Of a stretch of DNA of 64,000 bases, positions 1,647 to 61,159 are shown piece after piece. The stretch comes from Vicinamibacteria bacterium (GTDB taxonomy: Bacteria; Acidobacteriota; Vicinamibacteria; Vicinamibacterales; JAENWD01). The translations under genes were made by a program, and so were the position numbers. Every line of letters begins with the position of its first letter. Position 1 is the stretch's first letter. The notes under the pieces are model-generated. The model was not told the DNA's origin and did no database searches. It saw only the letters and a list, made by a program, of their open reading frames with translations. The stretch covers positions 141,877 to 205,876 of the forward strand of contig CAWDCH010000013.1 in assembly GCA_963800785.1 (NCBI GenBank). Direction: 5' to 3'.

Positions 1647-1650
<4 letters not shown>
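1..1650 (-). CDS. treZ: malto-oligosyltrehalose trehalohydrolase (TreZ), 3' end outside the window
   Basis: The minus frame with codon first bases at coordinates divisible by 3 is open from the window edge to ATG at 1650. It is absent from the ORF track because its stop lies outside the window. My translation starts [29 protein letters not shown]. Positions 1080-1021 read [20 protein letters not shown], a GH13 region-I motif. ATGA overlap with the glgX stop. Confidence 0.85.
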
Positions 1651-3833
<2,183 letters not shown>

Positions 3834-3925
3834 GAGGATCGTCAGGTTTTGCGGCCGAGCGATCTTATCGTGCGTTGGCCGCCGGTGCCGAGACGCACAA
3901 ATCGGGCCAAGGTTCGCGGGTGGAA

Positions 3926-4735
3926 ACGGATCGGACAAGTCACGGACGGACGCGGATGGCTATGGATCAATAGAAGGTCGCGGAGGGACGCGGGCTACAC
4001 GGACTGATTTTGGGCGGCCAGTCACGGGCAACGCATTGCAGGGGTCGCGCCGAAAACGGAAGCGGGCCAGAGGTCACGGACAAACGCGGATGGTCACGGA
4101 TCGACAGAAGGTCACGGAGGGACGCGGACGGTCACGGATTGACAAGGTCACGGACGGACGCGAACGGTCACGGATTGACAGAAAGTCATGGACAGACGCG
4201 ACGCGGACTTCACGGACTGTTGAACGGGCCGGTCTCGGGCGGCGCATGGTGGGGTCGCGCCGGGGACGGTAACGGATCGGAGGTCACGGACAGACGCGGA
4301 TGGTCACGGATCGACAGAAGGTCAAGGAGGGACGCGGACTACACGGACTGTTGAACGGGCCGGTCTCGGGCAACGCATGGTGGGGTCGCGCCGGGGACGG
4401 TAACAGATCGGAGGTCACGGACAGACGCGGATGGTCACGGATTGACAAAAGGTCACGGACGGACGCGGACGGTCACGGATTGACAGAAAGTCATGGACAG
4501 ACGCGGACTTCACGGACTGTTGACGGCACCGGGCTCGGCACGCATCGTGGGGTCGCGCGTCGGCCGGAGGCCGACGCGGGTCGAGTCGCGAGTGCGGACC
4601 GCAAGCCGCCTTCACCATCCCCACGCGGCTTGCGATCCGCACTCACGACTCGACTCAGCCGCGCGTCGCGTGGCGCGACCCTCGTCGTAGGGTGATGCCC
4701 GGCTGCTTCCGTGAACTTCCGTGTAATCCGTGACC
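3926..4735. repeat. composite word-repeat array (GTCACGG words, 131-bp higher-order repeat, inverted terminal words, 30-bp-arm hairpin)
   Basis: 14 exact and 8 one-mismatch GTCACGG words on the plus strand. Module CACGGACTG...GGGGTCGCGCC occurs at 3998, 4211, 4342 and 4511. Inverted words CCGTGA/CCGTGT/CCGTGACC lie at 4706-4735. Hairpin 4580-4609 / 4625-4654. Confidence 0.9.
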
Positions 4736-7698
4736 TACGAACTTGAAAGAACGGCGACGGGACAAGTGCTCAAGACATTGCCCAAGGCGATCGTAGGGCC
4801 GCTGTCCGTATCAGTAATCGACGGCACTTCGCCCGTGACGACGTTGCGGAGGCCGCTTGCGAAGCTGTCGGGGATACGGACAATCGTGTCCTGCCAAATC
4901 GTATCGGTGATCGGCCAGCCATTCTCGCTGTGAACCGTTGACGCGACGAGGCGCGGCACAATGGTGATAAGGCCACGGCCTCCATCATGACGCGCGTAAG
5001 CCACCACCCGTGCCCAGCGCGCCCCCTCCACGTGTAGCGGCACGTAGCTGCCGTTGAGCATGAGTTGCGGGTGCTGTTGCCGCAGCCGCAGCAACCGCGT
5101 CGTCAGCCACAGCTTGATTCGCCCATCGGGCCACGCCGCCAACAGATCGCTGACGATCGCGCTGAGCGCCAGGCCTCCTGGCGACTCTTCGCATTCCGAG
5201 GTTCCGATCGCGGCCTGAAGCGAGGCAAGGATGTCCCGACGCGCCGCGAAGTCGATCCGCTGGCGGTTGTCGGGATCGACCAGGTGCAGATCCCACAGCT
5301 CGTTCCCCTGGTAGATGTCGGGCACACCAGGGGCCGTGAGTTTGATTGCAAGCTGTGAAAGGCTGTTCACGACGCCGGCGCGAGCGACTCGTCTGGCAAA
5401 CGGCACGAACGCAGGAAGGAATCGTGCGGCATGGGGGCCGTCGAGCGTCTTCTCAATGAAGGTCGTTACCGCGGCGCCGTAGGCCTCATCGGGTGCGATC
5501 CAGCTCGTTCGCAACTTGGCCTCCCGCGTCGCCTTCATCAGAAACGCCGTAAGGCGTGCCGACAAGCCCTCGGGTGCCCTCGACGGGATGGGCGCCCCGG
5601 CGAGTTCCGCTGGCCACACGGACAGCAGCGACTGGTAGTACAAATACTCGTCGTTGTGCTCCGGTGCGGGCAGTGCATCGACGGTGTTTCGCAGTCCCGC
5701 GTTCATCCGCGCCCAGCGCGAGACTGTCTTCGCCCATTCGTCGGCCAGCTCCGACAGCACGTTCAGCCGCGCGCGCGCATCCTCCCCGCGCTTCGTATCG
5801 TGCGTGGCGGTCGTGGTCATGCTGAACGGCCACCGGTCGCGCCGCTCCGCGTTGGCTCGATGGAACGCGTCGATCGTCGTCATCGGCGCCGAGGGGTTAC
5901 CGCCGACCTCGTTCAGCGAGAGGAGCACGTTGTAGCGATAGAACGCCGTGTCCTCGACACCCTTCGCATGGACTGGCCCCGTGAATTGCTGAAACCGCAT
6001 GGTGAACCTGAGACGCTGGTCCATCGGATGGTCCTGCAGCGCAACCGTGTCATCGTGTCTGGCGCGTGCCGCCGCCGAGCCGAGCACGTGGCGGAGAAAG
6101 CCGAACGTCGCGCGTTCAGCAGCAGGATTCCGTCGATCTGCATGCTCGAACGCCGTCTCGATCGCGCGGCGATCGGCATCGCTGGCGCCGTACTCGTCGA
6201 TATAGGTGCGATACACGGGCAAGGCTGCGGCAACTTCCTGGAGCGCGTGGCTCAGCGTCCCGAGCGTGAAGTCGCGTGTCCTCCGATCCTGGTGCGCCAG
6301 GTCGTAGAGGGCATGCGCCAGCACGTTCAGCTCGCTGGCGAGCGTCGTCTGCATGATCAGGCGCTTCCCCTCGACGACCTCTTCTTCGAAGCTCTCCTGA
6401 CGACCGGTAATCCGGCGATATTGGCGCCGCAGACGCCAGAGCCCGTCGGGGTCCACGAACAGACTGTTCACGAGATTCAGGAAGTCGTAGCCCGTCGTGC
6501 CGTGAATCGGCCATGCCGGCAACGATTCGCCTGGCGAGAGAATCTTTTCGGCCAATACGTAGAGCGGCAATTCGCCCGACAGCGAGAGGCTGGAATCCGC
6601 GGAGGCGGGATCGGCGTCGCCATCGGCCGCGAGACGCTGGAGATTGGCAAAGTAGCGTGCCGGATCGAAGAGGCCGTCCGGATGATCGACGCGCACGCCG
6701 GTCACGGCGCCCTCGGCAATCAGCTTTTTCAGGAGACCATGCGTGTCGCGAAACACACGCGGTTCTTCCATGCGCAACGCGGCGAGGTCGTTCACATCGA
6801 AGAACCGCCGATAATTGATCTCGTCGAGCGCGGTTCGCCAGAAGGCGAGCCGGTAAGGCTGATGCTCGAGCAGATCGTGCAGGGGGTCGAAGCTCGCAGC
6901 ATTGCCAGGGGCACCATTGAAATGCCGGACCGCGGCCTCGATGTGTGCTGCGATCTCACCAGAGATCGCAACCAGCTGCAGCAGGCGCCGTCGCGCGACC
7001 TCCTTCTCGCGTTTTCGTTCCTCGATCCGCTCGGGTGTGCGCTCGTCGTACGTCGGCAGGTTCTGCAACGCGGACACGATGCTGAGGAACTCACGCACCT
7101 CGCCGTTGTCTTCGCTCACCCTCGCGCGAAGCGCGTCGAGGTTGTGGCGGTACACCGAGGGCGCCTGCCGCGGGTTGATGGGCAGCATGTGGTCGAAATA
7201 GCGGAGCTGCAGCGCGCCGCTCTCGAACGCCAGCTGCAGGTGGCCCCGTTCGAGCTCGTACCCGTACTGATCGCCCAGGATCGGCAGCAACAGCTTGTCG
7301 CGCATCGCCGACACCACCGGTGTCCAGTCGATGTCGAAGTAGCCAGCGTGCTCGGCGGACGGGCCGTTTTCGAGGACGTCGAACCACCATGCATTCGTGC
7401 GCGCATCCGTGCCCATGTGGTTGGGTACGAAGTCGAGCACTTGTCCCATCCCATGCGCCTGAAGCGCCGCGACAAACGCCTGATAGTCCTCATCGTCGCC
7501 AAGCTCGGGATTGAGGGCATTGTGGTCGCTGATGTCGTAACCGTGGAGCGTGCCTGGCGTCGCCTTCAGATACGGCGAGGCGTAACAGGCGCCGATGCCC
7601 AGCGTTGCTAAGTAGGGGACGAGCGCAGCCGCATCACGAAACGTGAAGCCTGTATGAAACTGCAGGCGATAGGTGCTCGACGGCACTCGCGCGATCAC
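4735..7698 (-). CDS. treY: malto-oligosyltrehalose synthase (TreY)
   Basis: 987-aa ORF. N-terminus [39 protein letters not shown], plus [10 protein letters not shown] and [12 protein letters not shown] overlap with the treS stop. Confidence 0.9.
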
Positions 7699-10600
7699 GC
7701 GCCCGGCCCTTTGTCGAGCAACTCGATCAGCCCGGCGAGCGGGATGTGCAGCCAGTCCGGCCGGTTGTTCAGTTCATACCGCAGCTCGTACAGCGCTTTC
7801 TCAATCAGGTAGATGCGGGAGAGTGCCGTGAAGCTGTCGAGCCCTTCGGGGACGAAGAGCGCAGAACGCGCCGCGGCGCGATACGCCTCCACGAAGATGC
7901 GGCTGACGTTCGTCTCCCAGAATCGCGCCCACGCCACCAGCTTGGTGCCGTCCTCTGGATGATGCGCTCGCCACGCGGTCAGCGCCGCCTGCGACGCGTA
8001 GCTGAACGAGCGGACCATGCCCGCAACATCCTTCAGCGGCGCCTGCCGCAGCCGCCGCTCGGGAAGCGCTCGGCCCGGCTCACCTTCGAAGTCGATGATG
8101 TAGAAATCTCCGCTGTCCCACAGCACCTGGCCAAGGTGGTAATCGCCGTGGATGCGCGTTTTCACCAGCCCTTGGGGGATGGTCGCGAGCAGCTGATCCA
8201 GATCGTTGACGACGTCGGGCAAGAATCTCGCAACGACCGTCGCCATCTCCTGAGCCATCGGCGCCAGCGTGGGCAGTTGGGTGACCAGCAGTTGACCCGT
8301 CTGCGTGGCCAGCGTGCGAATCCCCGCGATGGTCGCCGAGAGATCCTCGGGCGTCAGCGGCTCGGGCTCGAAATCGTTGACACCCTTCGCGCTGGCCATC
8401 GCCAGGTGCAAATCTGCCGTGCGTCGTCCTAGCCGGAGCACGGCATCGACATACCAGCCAAGACGATCGACCACGCCCTGGGAAACGCGCACATTGCCGG
8501 GAAGGAGCAGGCCCACTTCTGCGGCGATTTCGCCGATGTCCGGTGGCGGACCTGCTTCCGCGGCGGCGTTCTCGAGATAGCGGCCCGCTTCGCTGAGCGC
8601 CTGTTCCCAACCCGTCGCCTGGTAGTGGACTAGACCATGGAGGACGCCCAGCGTCGACCGCGTTCCATCGCCCTCCTCGTACTCGATGGCGCCACCGAGG
8701 CGCGGCGCGCGCGGGAACTGCACGCGCTCCGTGAGGTGATAACTGATTTCGAGCTCGGGGTTCGGCCCGGGCTCGACGCGCCGAATCAGCTTCAGGATCA
8801 GTTGCTCGCCGAAGATGAACGAGGTATTGCTCTGTTCGCTGGACGATCGATGGACCGGCAACGGCACGGCGGGGTCGACCGGTCCTCGCAGGGAATCGAA
8901 TGCGCTTGTCCGGCTGGCGACGAATCGCCCCTCGCGGCCGTCGAAGGAGAACCCGGCCGCGATGGCATCGAGAAGCAGGGAGGCGACCCCCCAATCGAGT
9001 CGTTCGTGCAGCACGCCTTTTCTGGCTCCGCTCACGCGGGCAATCACGAGTTCCGGCGATTCGCGTAAGAGGTCGTCGGCTGCCTTGCCGCCAAGGAACG
9101 CCATCGGCAGGACGTAGACTTCGGAGCCGCCGTCGCGGTAGTGCACGTCGAGCAGAGTGAGAAAGACCGGATCGGGTCCGCCGCGGACGAGCGCGTGATC
9201 GCGAATCAGGACCTGGCTGAGCGGACGCGCCTTGGCGGCGAACCAGCGACGTGTCGCCAGGTGGACCGGCAAGTAGTCGCGCTCCAGGATCTCGTGGGTC
9301 GCGGTCGTAAACGCGGTATCCCAGACAACACCGAGCAGGAGCGGCGGCAGATCGAGCGCGCCCGGCGGCTTCGGCGCCGATCGCGGCGCCGGCCGCTCGA
9401 CGACTGGAGGCGCGGGCGCCTCCGCCAGCTGAAACCAGTAGAAGCCGTAGGGGGCGAGCGTCAGAAAGTAGGGAAGGTCGCCTATCCGCGGGAACTCCGT
9501 GCTGCCAACCATCTCGATAGGCACGCGGCCGCTCCAGGCGCGCAGATCGAGCTCGGCCGGTTGCGCCGTCCGTGCGAGATTGGCGACACAGAAGATGGTC
9601 TCCCCGTCATATTCGCGAGCATAGGCAAGGATCTTCCGGTTCGGCGGCGAGACGAAGCGAATGCTGCCGCGTCCGAAGGTGCGGTGACGCGCACGCAATG
9701 CGATGATCCGCTTCATCCAGTTCAGGAGGGACGAGGGCGAGCGTTCCTGCGCCTCGACATTGAGCGCCTGATATCCCCACACCGGATCCATCACAAGCGG
9801 GGCGAAGAGTCGCGCGGGATCGGCGCGTGAGAAGCCGCCATTGCGATCCGACGTCCACTGCATCGGCGTGCGCACGCCGTTACGATCGCCGAGATAAATG
9901 TTGTCGCCCATCCCGATCTCGTCGCCGTAATAGATGACTGGCGTACCGGGCAGCGAAAAGATCAGGCCGTTCATCAGCTCGATCCGCTGGCGGTTGTTCT
10001 CCATCAGCGGCGCCAGGCGACGACGGATGCCGACGTTAATCCGCATCTGCGGGTCAGTCGCGTACGCCTGATACATGTAGTCGCGCTCTTCGGCGGTCAC
10101 CATCTCGAGCGTCAGCTCGTCGTGGTTCCGCAGGAAGATCGCCCACTGACACGCCGCGGGAATTTCCGGCGTCTGGCTCACGATGTCCGCAATCGGATGC
10201 CGGTCCTCCTGCCGGAGCGCCATGTAGATGCGGGGCATCAACGGGAAGTTGAATGCCATGTGGCATTCATCGCCGGATCCGAAATACGCACAGACATCGC
10301 CCGGCCACTGATTGGCCTCGGCCAGCAGCATGCGGTTGGAGTAGTTGCCGTCTATCTCGGCCCGCAGCTCTTTCAGTACCAGGTGGGTCTCGTAAAGGTT
10401 CTCGCAACTCGTGCCTTCACGCTCGATCAGGTACGGCACCGCATCGAGCCGCATGCCATCGACACCCATGTCGAGCCAGAACCGCATGATCTTCTGCACC
10501 GCGCGGCGCACGTGCGGGTTGTCGAAGTTGAGATCGGGCTGGTGATGAAAGAAGCGGTGCCAGTAATAGGCATTGGCCGCCGGATCCCAGGACCAGTTCG

Positions 10601-11066
10601 AGGTCTCGGTGTCGGTGAAGATGATGCGGACGCCCTCGTATTTATGCTTGGTATCGCTCCAGACGTAGTAGTTCCGCTTGGTCGAATCCGCCGGTGCGCG
10701 CCTGGCCGCCTGGAACCAGGGATGCTGATCGGAGGTGTGGTTGATGACGAGCTCCGTCACCACCTGCAGCCCGTGCTCGTGGGCCTCCCGCAGGAACATT
10801 CGAAAATCCTTCAACGTGCCGTAGCTCGGATGCACTCCCTCGTAGTGGGCGATGTCGTAGCCGTCATCGCGCAGCGGCGACGGGTAGAACGGCAGCAGCC
10901 AGACGCACGAGACGCCGAGGCTCTTGATGTAGCTGAGCTTCTCCGTCAACCCGCGGAAATCACCGATGCCATCGCCATTGCTGTCGTGGAAGGCGCGGAC
11001 GTGAACCTGATAGATGACGGCGTCCTTGTACCAGAGTGGGTCGGTCGCGCTGCCCGGCCGAATCAT
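7695..11066 (-). CDS. treS: trehalose synthase fused to maltokinase (TreS-Pep2/Mak)
   Basis: 1123-aa ORF. The N-terminal GH13 part has [38 protein letters not shown] and [10 protein letters not shown]. The C-terminal ~450 aa is kinase-like ([19 protein letters not shown]). Confidence 0.9.
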
Positions 11067-13090
11067 GCGGAGAGCCTCTCGAGACGGAAGATGTGCGCCG
11101 GCACCTGCGCTCTCGGATCGAGACGCACGTAGTTGCGATCGCCCCGCCAGGTGTAGGCGTTCCCGCTCAGCAAGTCTCTGACCAGGTAGCCGCCGGGATC
11201 AAGGCCATAGCGCAACGGATCGAACGACACGAACCCTTGCTGCATATTGAACGGATCGAGGTTTACGACCACAAGCAGCGCGGGCGACTGATCGCCGGCG
11301 CTCTTCACGTAGGCGATGATTTCCCAGTTGTCGCAGCCGACGAAGCGTAAACCCTCGGTCGTCTGCAGCGCCGGGTTGTCGCGCCGGATTCGGTTCACGA
11401 GGGCAATCAGCGGTGTCAGTGTTTGCGGTGCCTCCCAGTCACGCGGCTTGAGCTGAAACTTCTCCGAATCGAGGTATTCCTCGGATCCCTGTCGCACGGC
11501 AACGTTTTCGACCAGTTCGTAGCCGCTATAAATGCCGTAGCTCGCGCCGAGCGTCGCCGCGAGGACGAAGCGCGCCTGAAATGCCGGGCGGCCTCCGCGC
11601 TGCAGATAGTCGGTGAGGATATCCGGTGTGTTGGCGAAAAGGTTGGGCCTGAGGTACTCGCGGACCGACGTCGTCGTCAGCTCGGTGAAGTATTCCTCGA
11701 GCTCGGCGCGCGTGTTGCGCCAGGTGAAATAAGTGTACGACTGCGTGAATCCTATCTTGGCAAGATACCGCATGATCTTCGGGCGAGTGAACGCCTCGGA
11801 CAGGAAGATCGTGTCGGGAAACCGTTCCTGGACATCGGCGATCATCCACTGCCAGAACGCAAGCGCTTTCGTGTGTGGATTGTCGACGCGAAAGATCCGG
11901 ACACCCTTCTGGCACCAGAAGACGACGACGTCGCGGAGCGCAGCCCACAGCTCCCGCCAGGCCTCGGTGTCGAAGTTGATCGGATAGATGTCCTGATACT
12001 TCTTGGGTGGATTCTCTGCGTATTTGATCGTGCCGTCCGGGCGATGCCGGAACCACTCGGGATGTTCGCGCACCCATGGGTGATCGGGCGAACACTGGTA
12101 GGCAAGGTCGAGCGCCACCTCGAGGCCTTCACGCTCGGCCGCGCCGCGGAACGTCGCGAAATCATCGAAGGTGCCGAGTCCAGGATCGATGGCGGTGTGG
12201 CCCCCCGCCGGGCTGCCGATCGCCCAGGGGCTGCCGGGGTCGTCCGGCCCGGCGATCAGCGCATTGTTCCGTCCCTTCCGATGCGTGGTACCAATCGGAT
12301 GAACCGGCGGAAGATAGACGACATCGAAGCCCATCGCGGCTACCGCGGGTAGCCGCCGAGCCGCTTCGCTCAATGTGGCACCGCGTGAAGGATCAGGACT
12401 ATACGAGCGCGGAAAGAGCTCGTACCACGCGCCCGTGCGAGCGCGTACGCGTTCCACGCGCGCCCGGAACGTCGCCGACGCCGCCGCATGCAGACGCTGG
12501 TCGGCGGCGGCCATATCGACGGCGAGGTCCTCCAGAAGCGCTGTCGCCACGCGCTCCGACTGACCGGCCGCGCCGGTGAGGACGTCGGCCGTCGCGCGCA
12601 GCTGCGGCGCCAGCGTCGCTTCCCCACGATCAGCCGCCAATCGCAGCAGCTGAGCGCCTTCCTCGAGCTCGCTCGAAACGTCGAGGCCACCCTCGTGCTT
12701 CTTCCGCAGCTCGTCGCGCCAGCTTCCGAATCGGTCGACCCATGCCACGACCGCGTACTCGCACCAACCCTGCTCGGACAGATCAACGGTGGCCGTCCAC
12801 GCATCGTTGCCGAGTGGCGAGAGGCGAATCTCGCTCCACGGACCGGGTTTGCCTCGCTCGAATGGGGTATGCCGGGTGCGGAGGAGCGCACGCAGCGAGT
12901 CGTGGCCGTCGGCGAAAATGTCCGCAGTGACGCGGAGCGGCTCGCCGACGACGCGCTTGATCGGATAGCGACTGTCGTCGACACGAGGGGCAACGTTCTC
13001 GATGACCACGCGGATGCGGCCATCGAGTGAGGGTGGCGGCGCATGGCCGGACGCACGAGGCATGCCCGTACTTACTATCGCCTCTTTCAT
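11063..13090 (-). CDS. glgE: alpha-1,4-glucan:maltose-1-phosphate maltosyltransferase (GlgE)
   Basis: 675-aa ORF with [36 protein letters not shown] and [13 protein letters not shown]. An alternative start lies 9 codons downstream. Confidence 0.9.
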
Positions 13091-23813: not shown

Positions 23814-24671
23814 ATGGTGCCTTGCCCGCTTTGCGACGATACCGGTTGGAAGCCGATCGAGATCGACGGTGTTCGACGAATGACGCGATGCGACTGCTGG
23901 CGCGCGAAGCTGGGCGACACACTGCTCGCCGACGCGAATATCCCGCGCCGCTACCAGCATTGCGATCTCGACACGTTCATCACCTACCCAAACGAGCGGC
24001 TGCTGAACGTCGTCAAGCGCACGAAGCGCTTTGCCGACGAGTTTCCGGTGGTGGAGAAAGGACTGTTCTTCGTCGGTCCACCAGGCGTCGGCAAGACACA
24101 CCTTGCGGTCGCAACGCTCCGGCGGGTCATCCAGCGGACCGGTGCGCGCGGCATCTTCTACGACACGCGCGATCTGCTACGCGTCATCCGAAGCACCTAC
24201 GATCCGGTGGTGCGCGCGACGGAAGTGCAGGTGCTGCAGCCGGTGATCCACGCCGACCTGCTGGTGCTGGACGATCTCGGCGCCGAAAAGACGTCCGAGT
24301 GGGTGGAAGAGACGCTGAACTTCATCGTCAACGAGCGCTACAGCCAGCGCCGGGCGACGATTTTCACGACGAACTACGAGGAAAAGGAAGATCGCGACGA
24401 CCCGAACTCGCTGCTGGCCCGCGTCGGGTTCCGTATGCATTCGCGGCTCTATGAGATGTGCGAGTTCCTCGAATACGAGGGCGCCGATTTCCGCCATGCC
24501 GAACCGAACTCGGGACCGAACGAGCTCCTGGCGCTCTGGAAGACGATGAAGCGCCCGGGCAAGCTGCCCTCACGCAGCAGCGGTCAGCTGCGAGCCCAGC
24601 TTCGCGAGCCACGGGCGAAGGCCGACAGCAAGGCCGACCTCAAATGGAGCGGGGGCAAGGCGGGACGTTAG
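23814..24671 (+). CDS. DnaC/IstB-like AAA+ ATPase with N-terminal Cys-rich motif
   Basis: The real start is probably ATG 23814 (MVPCPLCDDTGW...RCDCW). Walker A is GPPGVGKTH and Walker B is LLVLDDLG. The upstream part of ORF 23526.. is not protein-like. Confidence 0.75.
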   Translation: MVPCPLCDDTGWKPIEIDGVRRMTRCDCWRAKLGDTLLADANIPRRYQHCDLDTFITYPNERLLNVVKRTKRFADEFPVVEKGLFFVGPPGVGKTHLAVATLRRVIQRTGARGIFYDTRDLLRVIRSTYDPVVRATEVQVLQPVIHADLLVLDDLGAEKTSEWVEETLNFIVNERYSQRRATIFTTNYEEKEDRDDPNSLLARVGFRMHSRLYEMCEFLEYEGADFRHAEPNSGPNELLALWKTMKRPGKLPSRSSGQLRAQLREPRAKADSKADLKWSGGKAGR

Positions 24672-24776
24672 GCAAGGACGAAGGACGAAGAATGAGGGAC
24701 GAAGGACATGCGCTGAACAAGGCGTCCCTCGTCTCTCCTCCGTCGTCCTTCGTCCCTCGTCACTCGTCCCTCGGCC
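24671..24776. repeat. word hairpin (GGACGAAG / GAGGGACGA words and their complements)
   Basis: GAGGGACGAAGGAC (24694-24707) is perfectly complementary to GTCCTTCGTCCCTC (24744-24757). Further complementary words flank this core. Confidence 0.7.
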
Positions 24777-31594: not shown

Positions 31595-31759
31595 GTGCCA
31601 AGTGCTAAGTGCTAAGTGGAGTGGGGAGTGGCTAGTGGAGAGTGGTTGCAGGACTGGTCAGATTGTCGCAGCTACGAGGAGCGGGGGGCTAGTCAGCCAC
31701 CACTTCCCACGACCCACTTCTCACTCCACTTAGCACTTGGCACTTAGCACTTGGCACTG
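31586..31759. repeat. word hairpin family copy 1 (CAGTGC[YAAGTGC]n AAGTGGAGTG... arms, ~58 bp each, ~50-nt core)
   Basis: The left arm (31586-31645) and right arm (31697-31759) are near-complementary. Both arms closely match the arms of the element at 61171-61353. Confidence 0.85.
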
Positions 31760-31771
31760 CTTTGGAGGTCC

Positions 31772-32707
31772 ATGAGTATCGTCGTCACCGGTTCCATCGC
31801 CTACGACTACCTGATGTCGTTCCCGGGCAAGTTCACCGAACACCTATTGCCCGAGCACGTGCATCGCGTGAGCCTGAGCTTTCTCGTCGACACCATGGAC
31901 AAGCGTCGCGGCGGCTGCGCGCCGAACATCGCGTATACGCTGGCGCTTCTCGGCGAGCGGCCGCGGCTGATGGGTACGGCAGGGCAGGACTTCGGCGACT
32001 ACCGACATTGGCTCGAAGCCGCGGGCATCGACACATCGCTCGTCGGCGAAGTCCCGGACAAGTTCACGGCGTCGTTCTTCTGCAGCACCGACCAGGACAG
32101 CAACCAGATTGCGTCCTTTTACACGGGAGCGATGGCTAACGCCGCCGAGCTCTCGTTTCGGACGGCGGGCACCGTGACGCTGACGATCATTGCGCCCAAC
32201 GATCCGCAGGCGATGCTGCAGTACACGGAGGAATGCCGCACGCTCGAGATCCCCTTCATCTTCGATCCAGGCCAGCAGTGTGCGCGGATGTCAGGAACGG
32301 AGCTCGCGGATGCGCTGAATGGCGCGACCGTGCTGATCCTGAACGACTACGAGCTCGAGCTGCTCCGGCAGAAAACCGGCCTCGACGAGCGCGAGCTGAT
32401 CGCCCGAACGGGAACGCTCGTCGTGACGCGCGGCGAGGAAGGCTCGACCATCCTGACGGCGGACGACGAGATCCGGGTTCCCGCCGTGAAGCCGCACCGC
32501 ATCGCTGACCCAACGGGCGTTGGCGACGCGTTTCGCGGCGGCTTCATGAAGGGAATGGTTGCCGGCCTGGACCTGGAAACGTCCGGACGGCTGGGAAGCG
32601 TCGCGGCGACCTACGCCCTCGAGCACCTCGGCGGATCCAGCCATGCATACACGTGGGAGGATTTTGCGGGCCGCTATGAGGAGCATTTCGGGCCGCTTCG
32701 CGGATAG
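31772..32707 (+). CDS. PfkB-family carbohydrate/nucleoside kinase (adenosine kinase-like)
   Basis: ATG 31772 is preceded by GGAGG. Sequence includes SIVVTGSIAYDYLM, GGCAPNIAY and the C-terminal DPTGVGDAFRGGF. Confidence 0.85.
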   Translation: MSIVVTGSIAYDYLMSFPGKFTEHLLPEHVHRVSLSFLVDTMDKRRGGCAPNIAYTLALLGERPRLMGTAGQDFGDYRHWLEAAGIDTSLVGEVPDKFTASFFCSTDQDSNQIASFYTGAMANAAELSFRTAGTVTLTIIAPNDPQAMLQYTEECRTLEIPFIFDPGQQCARMSGTELADALNGATVLILNDYELELLRQKTGLDERELIARTGTLVVTRGEEGSTILTADDEIRVPAVKPHRIADPTGVGDAFRGGFMKGMVAGLDLETSGRLGSVAATYALEHLGGSSHAYTWEDFAGRYEEHFGPLRG

Positions 32708-45502: not shown

Positions 45503-45965
45503 ACAGACCACAAAACTGCAGACCACGGACCGCAGACCACAGGCCGATTCAGGCCCGCGGTCCTTCGGCGTCGATCACGACGATCAACTTCTGCAAGGTC
45601 CTGATGGTCTGAACGCTGTAGTTTTGCAACGAGATTGAGCGTCCTCACTCAGTAAAGACTGGCGCCTGCTCAAGTCGATTAGGTAGTCGGTTTCGCAGGC
45701 TGAGGATAGGGCTATGTCCAGGAAGCGTCGGTAATCGCGCTCCGATGTCCTTTGCAGACCCTTCGACGATATTGGCCGGAATCGACATTGCGGTACGTCG
45801 TAACTGGCTTTGTATTACGAACCGTCCGGTGACCGGGAACGCCTTGGTCTCTTCATAGATGCAAAGCGCGAGGGCATCGGCGAGGTGGAAGGCCTTGAGC
45901 TTTCTGTGGTCGTGTCTGTGGTCTGGAGTCTGTAGTCTGGAGCCTGTAGTCTGTAGCCTGTCACT
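45503..45965. repeat. inverted word arms (CAGACCACRG left, CTGTGGTCT/CTGTAGTCT right) enclosing a four-helix-bundle gene remnant
   Basis: The left arm (45503-45543) and right arm (45903-45965) are built from mutually complementary words. The enclosed gene fills the space exactly. Confidence 0.75.
45549..45914 (-). pseudogene. four-helix-bundle protein (23S rRNA intervening-sequence protein / Avd-like family), no start codon and at least one frame shift
   Basis: My three-frame reading gives DHRKLKAFHLADALALCIYEETKAFPVTGRFVIQSQLRRTAMSIPANIVEGSA, then a shift near 45751-45753. It continues RTSERDYRRFLDIALSSACETDYLIDLSRRQSLLSED, then a probable second shift near 45640, then SISLQNYSVQTIRTLQKLIVVIDAEGPRA*. 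Confidence 0.75.
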
Positions 45966-55546: not shown

Positions 55547-55658
55547 GAATCCGCAATCCGAATCGGCAATCTAACTCTGCACTCTAAATCCGCAATCCAG
55601 TCCGCAATCCAATCCGCGATCCAATCCGCAATCCACAATCCGCAATCCGCAATCCGAA
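55547..55658. repeat. direct word array (AATCCGC / AATCCGCAATCC), no complementary arm
   Basis: About 12 same-orientation copies or variants of AATCCGC run up to 2 nt before the lpxI ATG. Confidence 0.7.
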
Positions 55659-60532: not shown

Positions 60533-61159
60533 ATGTTCGCAGCCTTCAGACGGTCGCTGTTACCTCTTGTTGTCGCCCTCGTGTTCGCCTACGCGGCCGG
60601 CATCGCTCCGGCCTCCGCGCAGTCGCCCGCTCCCGCTGCGCCACCATCTGCCGCCGATTTGCCGATCAATCCGGAAGATCCGGAGGTCAAGTCCGGCACA
60701 CCGGGAAAAGACGTGATCTTCCTGCCGACGCCTCAGGAGGTGGTGTCGGCGATGCTGGATCTCGCGAAGGTCACTGATGAGGACGTCGTGTACGACCTCG
60801 GTTCGGGCGATGGCCGCACGCCAATTACCGCAGCAAAGGAACACGGCGCGCGCGGTGTTGGCGTCGAGTTCAACCCGAAGCTCGTGGCTCTGTCGCGCCA
60901 GAACGCCGAGAAAGCCGGCGTCGCCGATCGCGTGCGCTTCATCAACGCGGATCTGTTCCAGACCGACATCTCGGAAGCCACAGTGGTCACCCTGTACCTG
61001 CTCAGCTCGCTCAATCAAAAGCTGCTGCCGAAGCTGCAGCACGAGTTGAAACCAGGCACCCGAATCGTCTCCCACGCCTTCTCGATGGGCGACGAGTGGA
61101 AGCCCGATGCGGAGCGGACGGTCAACGGGAAGACGATCTACCTGTGGACAGTCAAATGA
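60533..61159 (+). CDS. class I SAM-dependent methyltransferase with N-terminal signal/anchor sequence
   Basis: LLPLVVALVFAYAAGIAPASAQ, then VYDLGSGDGR (motif I) and VEFNPKLV...RFINADLF. Confidence 0.8.
   Translation: MFAAFRRSLLPLVVALVFAYAAGIAPASAQSPAPAAPPSAADLPINPEDPEVKSGTPGKDVIFLPTPQEVVSAMLDLAKVTDEDVVYDLGSGDGRTPITAAKEHGARGVGVEFNPKLVALSRQNAEKAGVADRVRFINADLFQTDISEATVVTLYLLSSLNQKLLPKLQHELKPGTRIVSHAFSMGDEWKPDAERTVNGKTIYLWTVK

Follow-up and report, generated by a model that had tools for sequence, protein, structure and literature searches.

A lineage-specific, variable repeat array in the treY-glgX junction of a Vicinamibacteria operon is probably an intergenic minisatellite

The present study concerns a composite repeat array between treY and glgX in a Vicinamibacteria (Acidobacteriota) metagenome-assembled genome, of which a stretch of 64,000 nucleotides was analysed (hereafter, the window). 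With a probability of roughly 0.6, we read this array as a hypervariable intergenic minisatellite, specific to its lineage, by which glgX-treZ became uncoupled from treY, probably through Rho-type polarity. The array appears to be young, changes fast and is confined to the closest relatives; this favors an ordinary bacterial minisatellite, as the most likely reading, over a conserved module of RNA control. As in minisatellites generally, its units of 10 to 100 bp lie head to tail in non-coding DNA. As in other VNTRs, copy number and arrangement differ between close strains, namely the window and its relative L120, both of which are assemblies.

All genes of the cluster lie on the minus strand, in the order glgE, treS-mak, treY, a spacer of ~900 bp, glgX, and treZ. 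Profile and domain matches confirmed the gene identities assigned in a preliminary description of this DNA. These are a GlgE-type maltosyltransferase (11063-13090, minus strand; PF11896 and PF21702), a TreS-maltokinase fusion (7695-11066, minus strand; by domain search), the malto-oligosyltrehalose synthase TreY (987 aa; 4735-7698, minus strand; NCBIfam TIGR02401, 942 bits; stop codon TAG at 4737-4735), the glycogen debranching enzyme GlgX (728 aa; 1647-3833, minus strand; TIGR02100, 1045 bits), and TreZ (from 1650 downwards, minus strand). The TreY of the window is 100% identical to P0255, encoded on a 488,316-bp NCBI/ENA contig, and the LysRS of the window likewise has a 100% identical counterpart there. 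Among named genomes, LysRS is closest (78%) to metagenome-assembled Vicinamibacteria or Vicinamibacterales. The same description had three neighbouring gene pairs overlapping by ATGA, which is correct for glgE/treS and for glgX/treZ; the treS/treY overlap (7695-7698) is instead GTGA, with a GTG start. The glgX start used by relatives is the ATG at 3833, and their GlgX proteins of 726 to 728 aa begin with MSRRSY. Because this conserved start is the ATG at 3833, the untranslated gap between treY and glgX amounts to about 900 bp (3834-4734). The array does occupy, as had been claimed, the only large gap in glgE-treS-treY-glgX-treZ. Start codons in the window mostly lack a Shine-Dalgarno sequence (e.g., those at 3833, 11066, 43997, 50638, and 60533). 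A TATAAT stands 7 nt upstream of the ATG at 60533, a position that suggests a leaderless mRNA. The window also encodes a TIGR03436 'acidobact_VWFA' protein, which, together with the LysRS relatives, places the organism among the uncultured Vicinamibacteria (Acidobacteriota).

The array core extends from 3938 to 4545 (minus strand), as given by the unit parse, Tandem Repeats Finder and the repeat families D1-D4. Within the composite repeat first noted at 3926-4735, the sequence reading and unit parse recovered the alternation of two units that had been described there. On the sense strand, the A unit has 20 nt (rTCCGCGTCyrTCCGTGACC; in RNA, rUCCGCGUCyrUCCGUGACC) and the B unit has 18 nt (TTCTGTCAATCCGTGACC; in RNA, UUCUGUCAAUCCGUGACC). 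Four long modules (GGCGCGACCCCACCATGCG...CAACAGTCCGTGAAGTCCGCGTC) break up this alternation; their CACGGA starts fall at 3998, 4211, 4342, and 4511, exactly where they had been placed. Together, the A and B units and the long modules span about 600 nt of the spacer. Tandem Repeats Finder returned periods of 18, 20, 38, and 131 overall. The period of 38 (= 20 + 18) showed 85-88% matches, and that of 131 showed 2.4 copies with a score of 520. The latter is a higher-order repeat in two copies (4211-4472, minus strand), in which 4211-4341 and 4342-4472 are 93.1% identical, against ~93% in the earlier estimate.

The plus strand carries 14 exact GTCACGG words, as counted before, versus 0.09 expected from base composition; the words with one mismatch number nine and not eight. 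Allowing up to one mismatch, GGTCACGGA matched 43 times in the window versus 24.4 +/- 4.4 times in shuffles, and 19 of these 43 matches lay inside the array. The 13-bp core GTCACGGANNGAC is present in 12 copies in the array and nowhere else in the window, and no second copy of the array was found within these 64 kb. All copy numbers are those of the assembly. GC content is 62-64% throughout the region. No other 500-nt stretch of the window is as strand-skewed as the array, with its GC skew of 0.25 (>4 SD). The sense-strand ORFs in the spacer are short, overlapping and out of register, and none of them links the treY stop to the glgX start. A coding array was rejected, because three divides none of the periods (18, 20, 38, and 131) and the ORFs are short and overlapping. 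CRISPR arrays have repeats of 23-55 bp and unique spacers of similar length. A CRISPR array was also rejected, since only 9-11 nt separate the cores and these segments fall into two recurring types instead of being unique.

Directly 3′ of the treY stop lie three sense-strand ACGGA words (GGUCACGGAUUACACGGAAGUUCACGGAAG; 4706-4735, minus strand), which the preliminary description had rightly placed there as inverted words adjoining the TAG. The spacer RNA opens with these purine-type words as UAG-GUCACGGAUUACACGGAAGUUCACGGAAG, and the array words are their reverse complement. Similar words follow the treY stop in the relatives L120, L121, L124, and L129. L129, with 73% TreY identity, has no glgX downstream. 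Because even this relative has ACGGA words 3′ of its treY stop, these words may be older than the array. In L129, four CCACGGA-type words stand 17-20 nt apart at 4597-4690, and different genes follow.

A GC-rich stem-loop comes after treY (4550-4681, minus strand), with its arms GGGTCGCGC at 4550-4558 and GCGCGACCC at 4673-4681; in the RNA, the stem is GGGUCGCGC/GCGCGACCC. In the window this stem is split by a strain-specific insertion of 98 bp (4562-4659, minus strand), bounded at either end by a copy of the 8-bp direct repeat GACGCGCG. L120, the strain at 98% identity, has no insertion here, and its stem is intact and folds as a 9-bp stem. The insertion consists almost entirely of a hairpin with 30-bp arms (4580-4654) and the completion of a hairpin with a 10-bp stem (4556-4578). 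The long arms (4580-4609 and 4625-4654) are 30 nt each and 93% complementary, in agreement with the earlier reading. The insertion looks like a miniature mobile element of palindromic type together with its target-site duplication, and no other copy of it was found in the window. In every relative with a non-minimal spacer, a GC-rich hairpin occurs 45-70 nt past the treY stop, each with its own sequence and none with a U-tract. A terminator scan of 3500-5000 gave a single match, at 3738-3725 within glgX, and none inside the spacer. An intrinsic terminator was therefore rejected, as the hairpins after treY have no U-tract and the spacer has no terminator-like site.

On the glgX side, a unique segment of ~100 nt with CACGAUAAGAU closes the spacer. 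A box, CACGATAAGAT (3862-3872, minus strand), which contains TAAGAT, lies 29-39 nt upstream of the glgX ATG. This box is identical in the window, L121, L122, and L125 (alignment A1), the surrounding spacer having otherwise diverged, and junctions with a 10-bp spacer lack it. The box may serve a separate glgX-treZ transcript as its -10 element (TAAGAT) or as a leader element. In a sigma-70 consensus scan the box fell below threshold, and the scan of the spacer gave no promoter on either strand. The array sits between the post-treY stem-loop and the pre-glgX box, where constraint should be weakest.

To place the array in its lineage, the treY-glgX junction was read from the contigs of nine relatives. 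Nearly all TreY homologues of >70% identity came from soil metagenomes. The length of the spacer follows the TreY phylogeny: 10 bp (TAG-GTCACACGTN-ATG) in L126 and L128, both at 78% TreY identity; 85 bp in L122 (80%); 120 bp in L125 (81%); 297 bp in L121 (81%); and ~900 bp in the window. The spacer of L121 holds a few of the words, in both orientations. That of L125 holds one GTCCGTGACC...ATCCGCG together with a UAGGUCGC/GUGACCUA stem, which could be the seed of the array. The contig of L124 (84%) stops 82 bp after the treY stop. In the P0002 contig (83%), at least 1200 bp of gene-poor, non-coding DNA follow treY, the DNA letters of which were not read. The array is absent from the relatives at 78-81% TreY identity. 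In a neighbour-joining tree of TreY, the window, L120 and P0002 form the array-bearing clade, with L125 as its sister and the 10-bp junctions basal. The TAG-N10-ATG junctions of the 78% relatives support the earlier view that the array was inserted, or expanded, in a once tight junction.

L120, with 98% TreY identity and from an independent metagenome, does possess the array, its spacer being at least 602 bp long with the contig stopping inside the array. Its leader is identical to that of the window at 76 of the first 78 nt (by eye). The same A units, B units and long modules recur in L120, without the 98-bp hairpin insertion and in a different number and order, although some of these differences could be assembly error, both sequences being assemblies. 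That L120 shares the units, differs in their number and order and lacks the insertion argues that the array is young, restricted to one sub-clade and still changing. The preliminary description would have regarded the array as a relic rather than a functional element if related strains carried unrelated sequence of similar size at this site. The relatives go further than that, as the spacer does not keep even its size, ranging from 10 bp to at least 1200 bp.

The sense RNA of the array core (4480 to 3940) gave a minimum free energy of -140 kcal/mol, compared to -147 +/- 7 kcal/mol for shuffled sequences (z = +0.92). In this folding model, the core RNA has no more structure than expected by chance. 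The full 904-nt sense spacer had a z of -3.2, only because of the inserted hairpin and the long-range pairing of the three 5′ words with the array; in the MFE fold, these words pair with array words ~640 nt downstream. The z of -6.9 for the plus strand is likewise due to the inserted hairpin and the long-range word pairing. The sense core contains 39% C and 24% G (C/G = 1.64 over 581 nt). C/G exceeds 1.3 in every 78-nt window across the array, and most of these windows hold 19-25 YC dimers. Long, untranslated, C-rich and unstructured RNA is the preferred loading substrate of Rho. The array has the features of a Rho utilisation sequence, that is, at least about 80 nt of untranslated RNA with C in excess of G and little structure. 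Because its RNA is long, untranslated, C-rich and unstructured, Rho-dependent polarity would be the most likely consequence of the array.

Previously, the array had been proposed to act as an RNA processing or stability module separating the synthase and debranching halves of the operon. In such a module, the 5′ ACGGA words would pair with downstream UCCGUGACC, the 30-bp hairpin would be an RNase III site or a 3′-end protector, and the levels of treY versus glgX-treZ mRNA would be set in this way. The z of the full spacer and the pairing over ~640 nt are in its favor, as is the GC-rich stem-loop after treY in every relative with a longer spacer. Furthermore, both mismatches of the 30-bp-arm hairpin read as G.U when the minus strand is the RNA but as C.A when the plus strand is, and a T/C polymorphism in the B-unit mini-stem is G.U on the sense strand. 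This pattern fits sense-strand transcription, though with three observations p is about 0.125 at best. Against these points, the array core is unstructured on the minus strand, the array is absent at 78-81% TreY identity, and unit number and order differ in the 98% strain, which also lacks the insertion carrying the 30-bp hairpin. Nor did Rfam provide a family for the array; nothing in the window reached the gathering score, and the perfect hairpin drew only plant and animal miRNA matches far below it. The proposed module is not supported by these results and appears unlikely to us. The 30-bp hairpin is the element of the spacer that looks like a processing or stability signal, and such a role is weakly possible for this strain-specific hairpin.

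The array might instead bind protein, either as DNA, with iteron-like or regulator-titrating GTCACGGANNGAC sites, or as a plus-strand antisense RNA acting as a CsrA/Rsm-type sponge in a carbon-storage operon. The motifs themselves invite this idea, since the plus strand of the array offers 12 GTCACGGANNGAC, 23 ACGGA and 45 GGA, and GUC-ACGGAU-(N)-GAC is similar to a stem carrying the high-affinity ANGGAX hexaloop (PMC4005645). ACGGAU is the loop of the hcnA and RsmZ SL1 sites and constitutes a characterised high-affinity RsmE/CsrA site when on a stem (PMC4005645). CsrA homologues are present in some Acidobacteria (PMC4682653), which also favors the idea. However, tblastn with E. coli and B. 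subtilis CsrA queries found no csrA gene in the window or in the loci of the relatives, and Rfam gave no CsrB or Rsm family match at E <= 1. A Csr/Rsm sponge has its own promoter and terminator and exposed GGA motifs. Consensus scans of either strand found no promoter or terminator for a plus-strand transcript, and the GGA motifs, present as they are, are barely more accessible than background (0.47 vs 0.39). Besides, the polymorphisms favor pairing on the sense strand and not on the plus strand, and the array is not conserved beyond the closest relatives. Iteron-type origins have direct repeats of 17-22 bp beside a rep gene, DnaA boxes and an AT-rich unwinding region. As for DNA binding, the core-to-core spacing of 18-20 bp is iteron-like, but a period of 38 bp comes to 3.6 helical turns, which keeps the sites from sharing one face of the helix, and neither a rep gene nor a DnaA box nor an AT-rich region is present. 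An iteron-type origin was rejected despite the fitting spacing, given the treY and glgX flanks, the GC content of 62-64% and the lack of a plasmid match. The strong uniformity of the units (12 GTCACGGANNGAC copies in the array) and the recurrence of ACGGA words after treY even in the 73% relative do tell against the minisatellite reading and are compatible with a binding-site function. Overall, we hold protein binding by the array to be quite improbable.

It is very unlikely that the array is a short repeat that the assembler wrongly expanded, collapsed or chimerically joined. The short-read contigs of relatives do break here, that of L120 inside the array and that of L124 shortly after treY, and short reads struggle to resolve a 131-bp repeat whose copies are 93% identical. 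Nevertheless, L120 was assembled independently from another sample and shares the leader and the long, A and B units with the window. The window itself is contiguous on a 488-kb contig, with unique treY and glgX flanks, and the array copies differ by distinct substitutions rather than being identical.

We give scarcely any credence to the array as a functional multi-site RNA, whether as a plus-strand sponge with 12 GUC-ACGGAN-N-GAC mini stem-loops and 23 ACGGA, which if true would be a giant CsrA/Rsm-type sponge in a glycogen/trehalose operon and the first outside Gammaproteobacteria, or through sense-strand 'anti-GGA' words titrating the three ACGGA words after treY, which if true would be a switch between the synthase half and the debranching half of the operon, tunable through the copy number.

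According to the minisatellite reading, the treY-glgX junction would at first have been tight (10 bp). In one clade, the two genes would then have come to be separated by a genuine intergenic spacer that carried a GC-rich stem-loop next to treY and, before glgX, the CACGATAAGAT box. This spacer would have held a short hairpin, its 5′ arm overlapping the treY stop (UAGGUCAC...) and its 3′ arm, GUCCGUGACC, being followed by AUCCGCG. In the sub-clade of the window, the words of the 3′ arm would have been amplified into alternating 20- and 18-nt units and then into higher-order units of ~131 bp, likely through replication slippage and unequal recombination. Copy number and order would still be shifting between strains at 98% identity. 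The array, of which the anatomy, variability, phylogenetic distribution, composition and lack of structure are observed directly, is not a sequence-specific machine. Its likely effect would be the physical and transcriptional uncoupling of glgX-treZ from the upstream genes. The about 600 nt of C-rich, G-poor and poorly structured RNA may serve as an untranslated entry zone for Rho. Read-through from treY would be attenuated, and glgX-treZ would then depend mainly on their own upstream box in its putative promoter role.

Short-word repeats also precede other genes of the window. At 55548-55656, AATCCGC is repeated in tandem on the sense strand (about 13-17 copies with variants) up to 3 nt before the ATG (55660) of an LpxI-like gene, and this word overlaps the array words ATCCGCG and ATCCGTG. 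At 24670-24775, just upstream of a HemN/HemW-like gene, purine words (GGACGAA) are followed by complementary pyrimidine words (TTCGTCC/CGTCCCT), which is the word/anti-word layout of the treY-glgX spacer in miniature. Tandem TCTGTAG/TCTGGAG heptamers (45903-45961) end directly at the GTG start (45966) of a LolC/E-like gene, and CACTT/CACTTAGCACTTGG repeats at about 31700-31760 precede an ATG at 31772. Such leader microsatellites are unusually dense in this genome, and the genome as a whole seems prone to, or tolerant of, tandem repeats of short words in its intergenic leaders. These other leader repeats lend support to a mutational origin of the array.

Searches of databases returned no counterpart outside the lineage in the collections covered. 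Plasmid and phage collections gave no match to the array. Unit-specific patterns gave one chance coding match each in metagenome and in viral contigs (L123 and L127), the metagenome collection having missed L120. In genome contigs, the pattern GTCACGGA-N8-13 x3 proved too generic, hitting at least 119 unrelated tandem repeats in many phyla; among these listed matches (at least 119), none resembles the array by blastn. Many unrelated genomes of high GC content (Streptacidiphilus, Myxococcota, Terriglobales, and others; e.g., L011, L040, and L078) carry tandem GTCACGGA arrays spaced at 16-21 bp, and these and others are similar to the treY-glgX array in the core only. A literature search on intergenic tandem repeats in Acidobacteria yielded nothing relevant.

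If our reading is right, the locus provides a natural example of how a tight, translationally coupled junction becomes a long, repeat-filled spacer, with intermediate stages of 10, 85, 120, 297, and ~900 bp kept in related uncultured Vicinamibacteria. The array could be used as a hypervariable strain-typing marker for this abundant soil lineage. It is also a place where short-read assemblies break, and it cautions against reading regulatory function into the regularity of repeats. Its importance would be greater if the C-rich repeat leaders of this Shine-Dalgarno-poor genome were a general expression device.

Among known systems, rut regions are matched by the array in that it would give a long, untranslated, C-rich, G-poor and weakly structured RNA rich in YC dimers. 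In contrast, known rut sites are about 80 nt long and are not tandem repeats, and Rho dependence is here purely inferred. Cyanobacterial STRRs and LTRRs are short-word tandem repeats in non-coding regions, including those between co-transcribed genes. The array resembles them as a short-word tandem repeat confined to non-coding DNA, in a genome that also has heptamer arrays in its leaders. Its phylum and words are different, and STRRs are simple heptamer arrays found genome-wide, not composite hierarchical ones. REP units are palindromes of 20-40 bp in hundreds of copies (PMC3733652). As with the REP/BIME elements of enterobacteria, non-coding intercistronic repeats are involved that could alter the relative expression of upstream and downstream genes. 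However, the units of the array are direct, non-palindromic, unstructured as RNA and limited to one locus in the window; a REP/BIME element was rejected, as the palindromic stem-loop unit is absent and the core has a z of +0.92.

Csr/Rsm sponges (CsrB, RsmY/Z), which are known only in Gammaproteobacteria (PMC4682653), share with the array many ANGGA motifs, some of them on short stems, and the link to carbon-storage genes; the ACGGAU loop is identical to the characterised RsmE site (PMC4005645). They differ in that the motifs of the array are antisense, with no promoter or terminator and no covariance-model match, and in that the array is not conserved. MIRUs have units of 40-100 bp at ~40-50 dispersed loci, with small ORFs overlapping the flanking genes (PMC3184786). 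The units of the array are 18 and 20 nt long with a 131-bp higher order; no small ORF overlaps the flanking stop and start codons to couple the genes, and no second locus was found in the 64 kb. Like the MIRU-VNTRs of mycobacteria, the array is a tandem minisatellite between operon genes that is transcribed in sense with the operon, is missing from the homologous position of related species and varies in copy number from strain to strain (PMC3184786).
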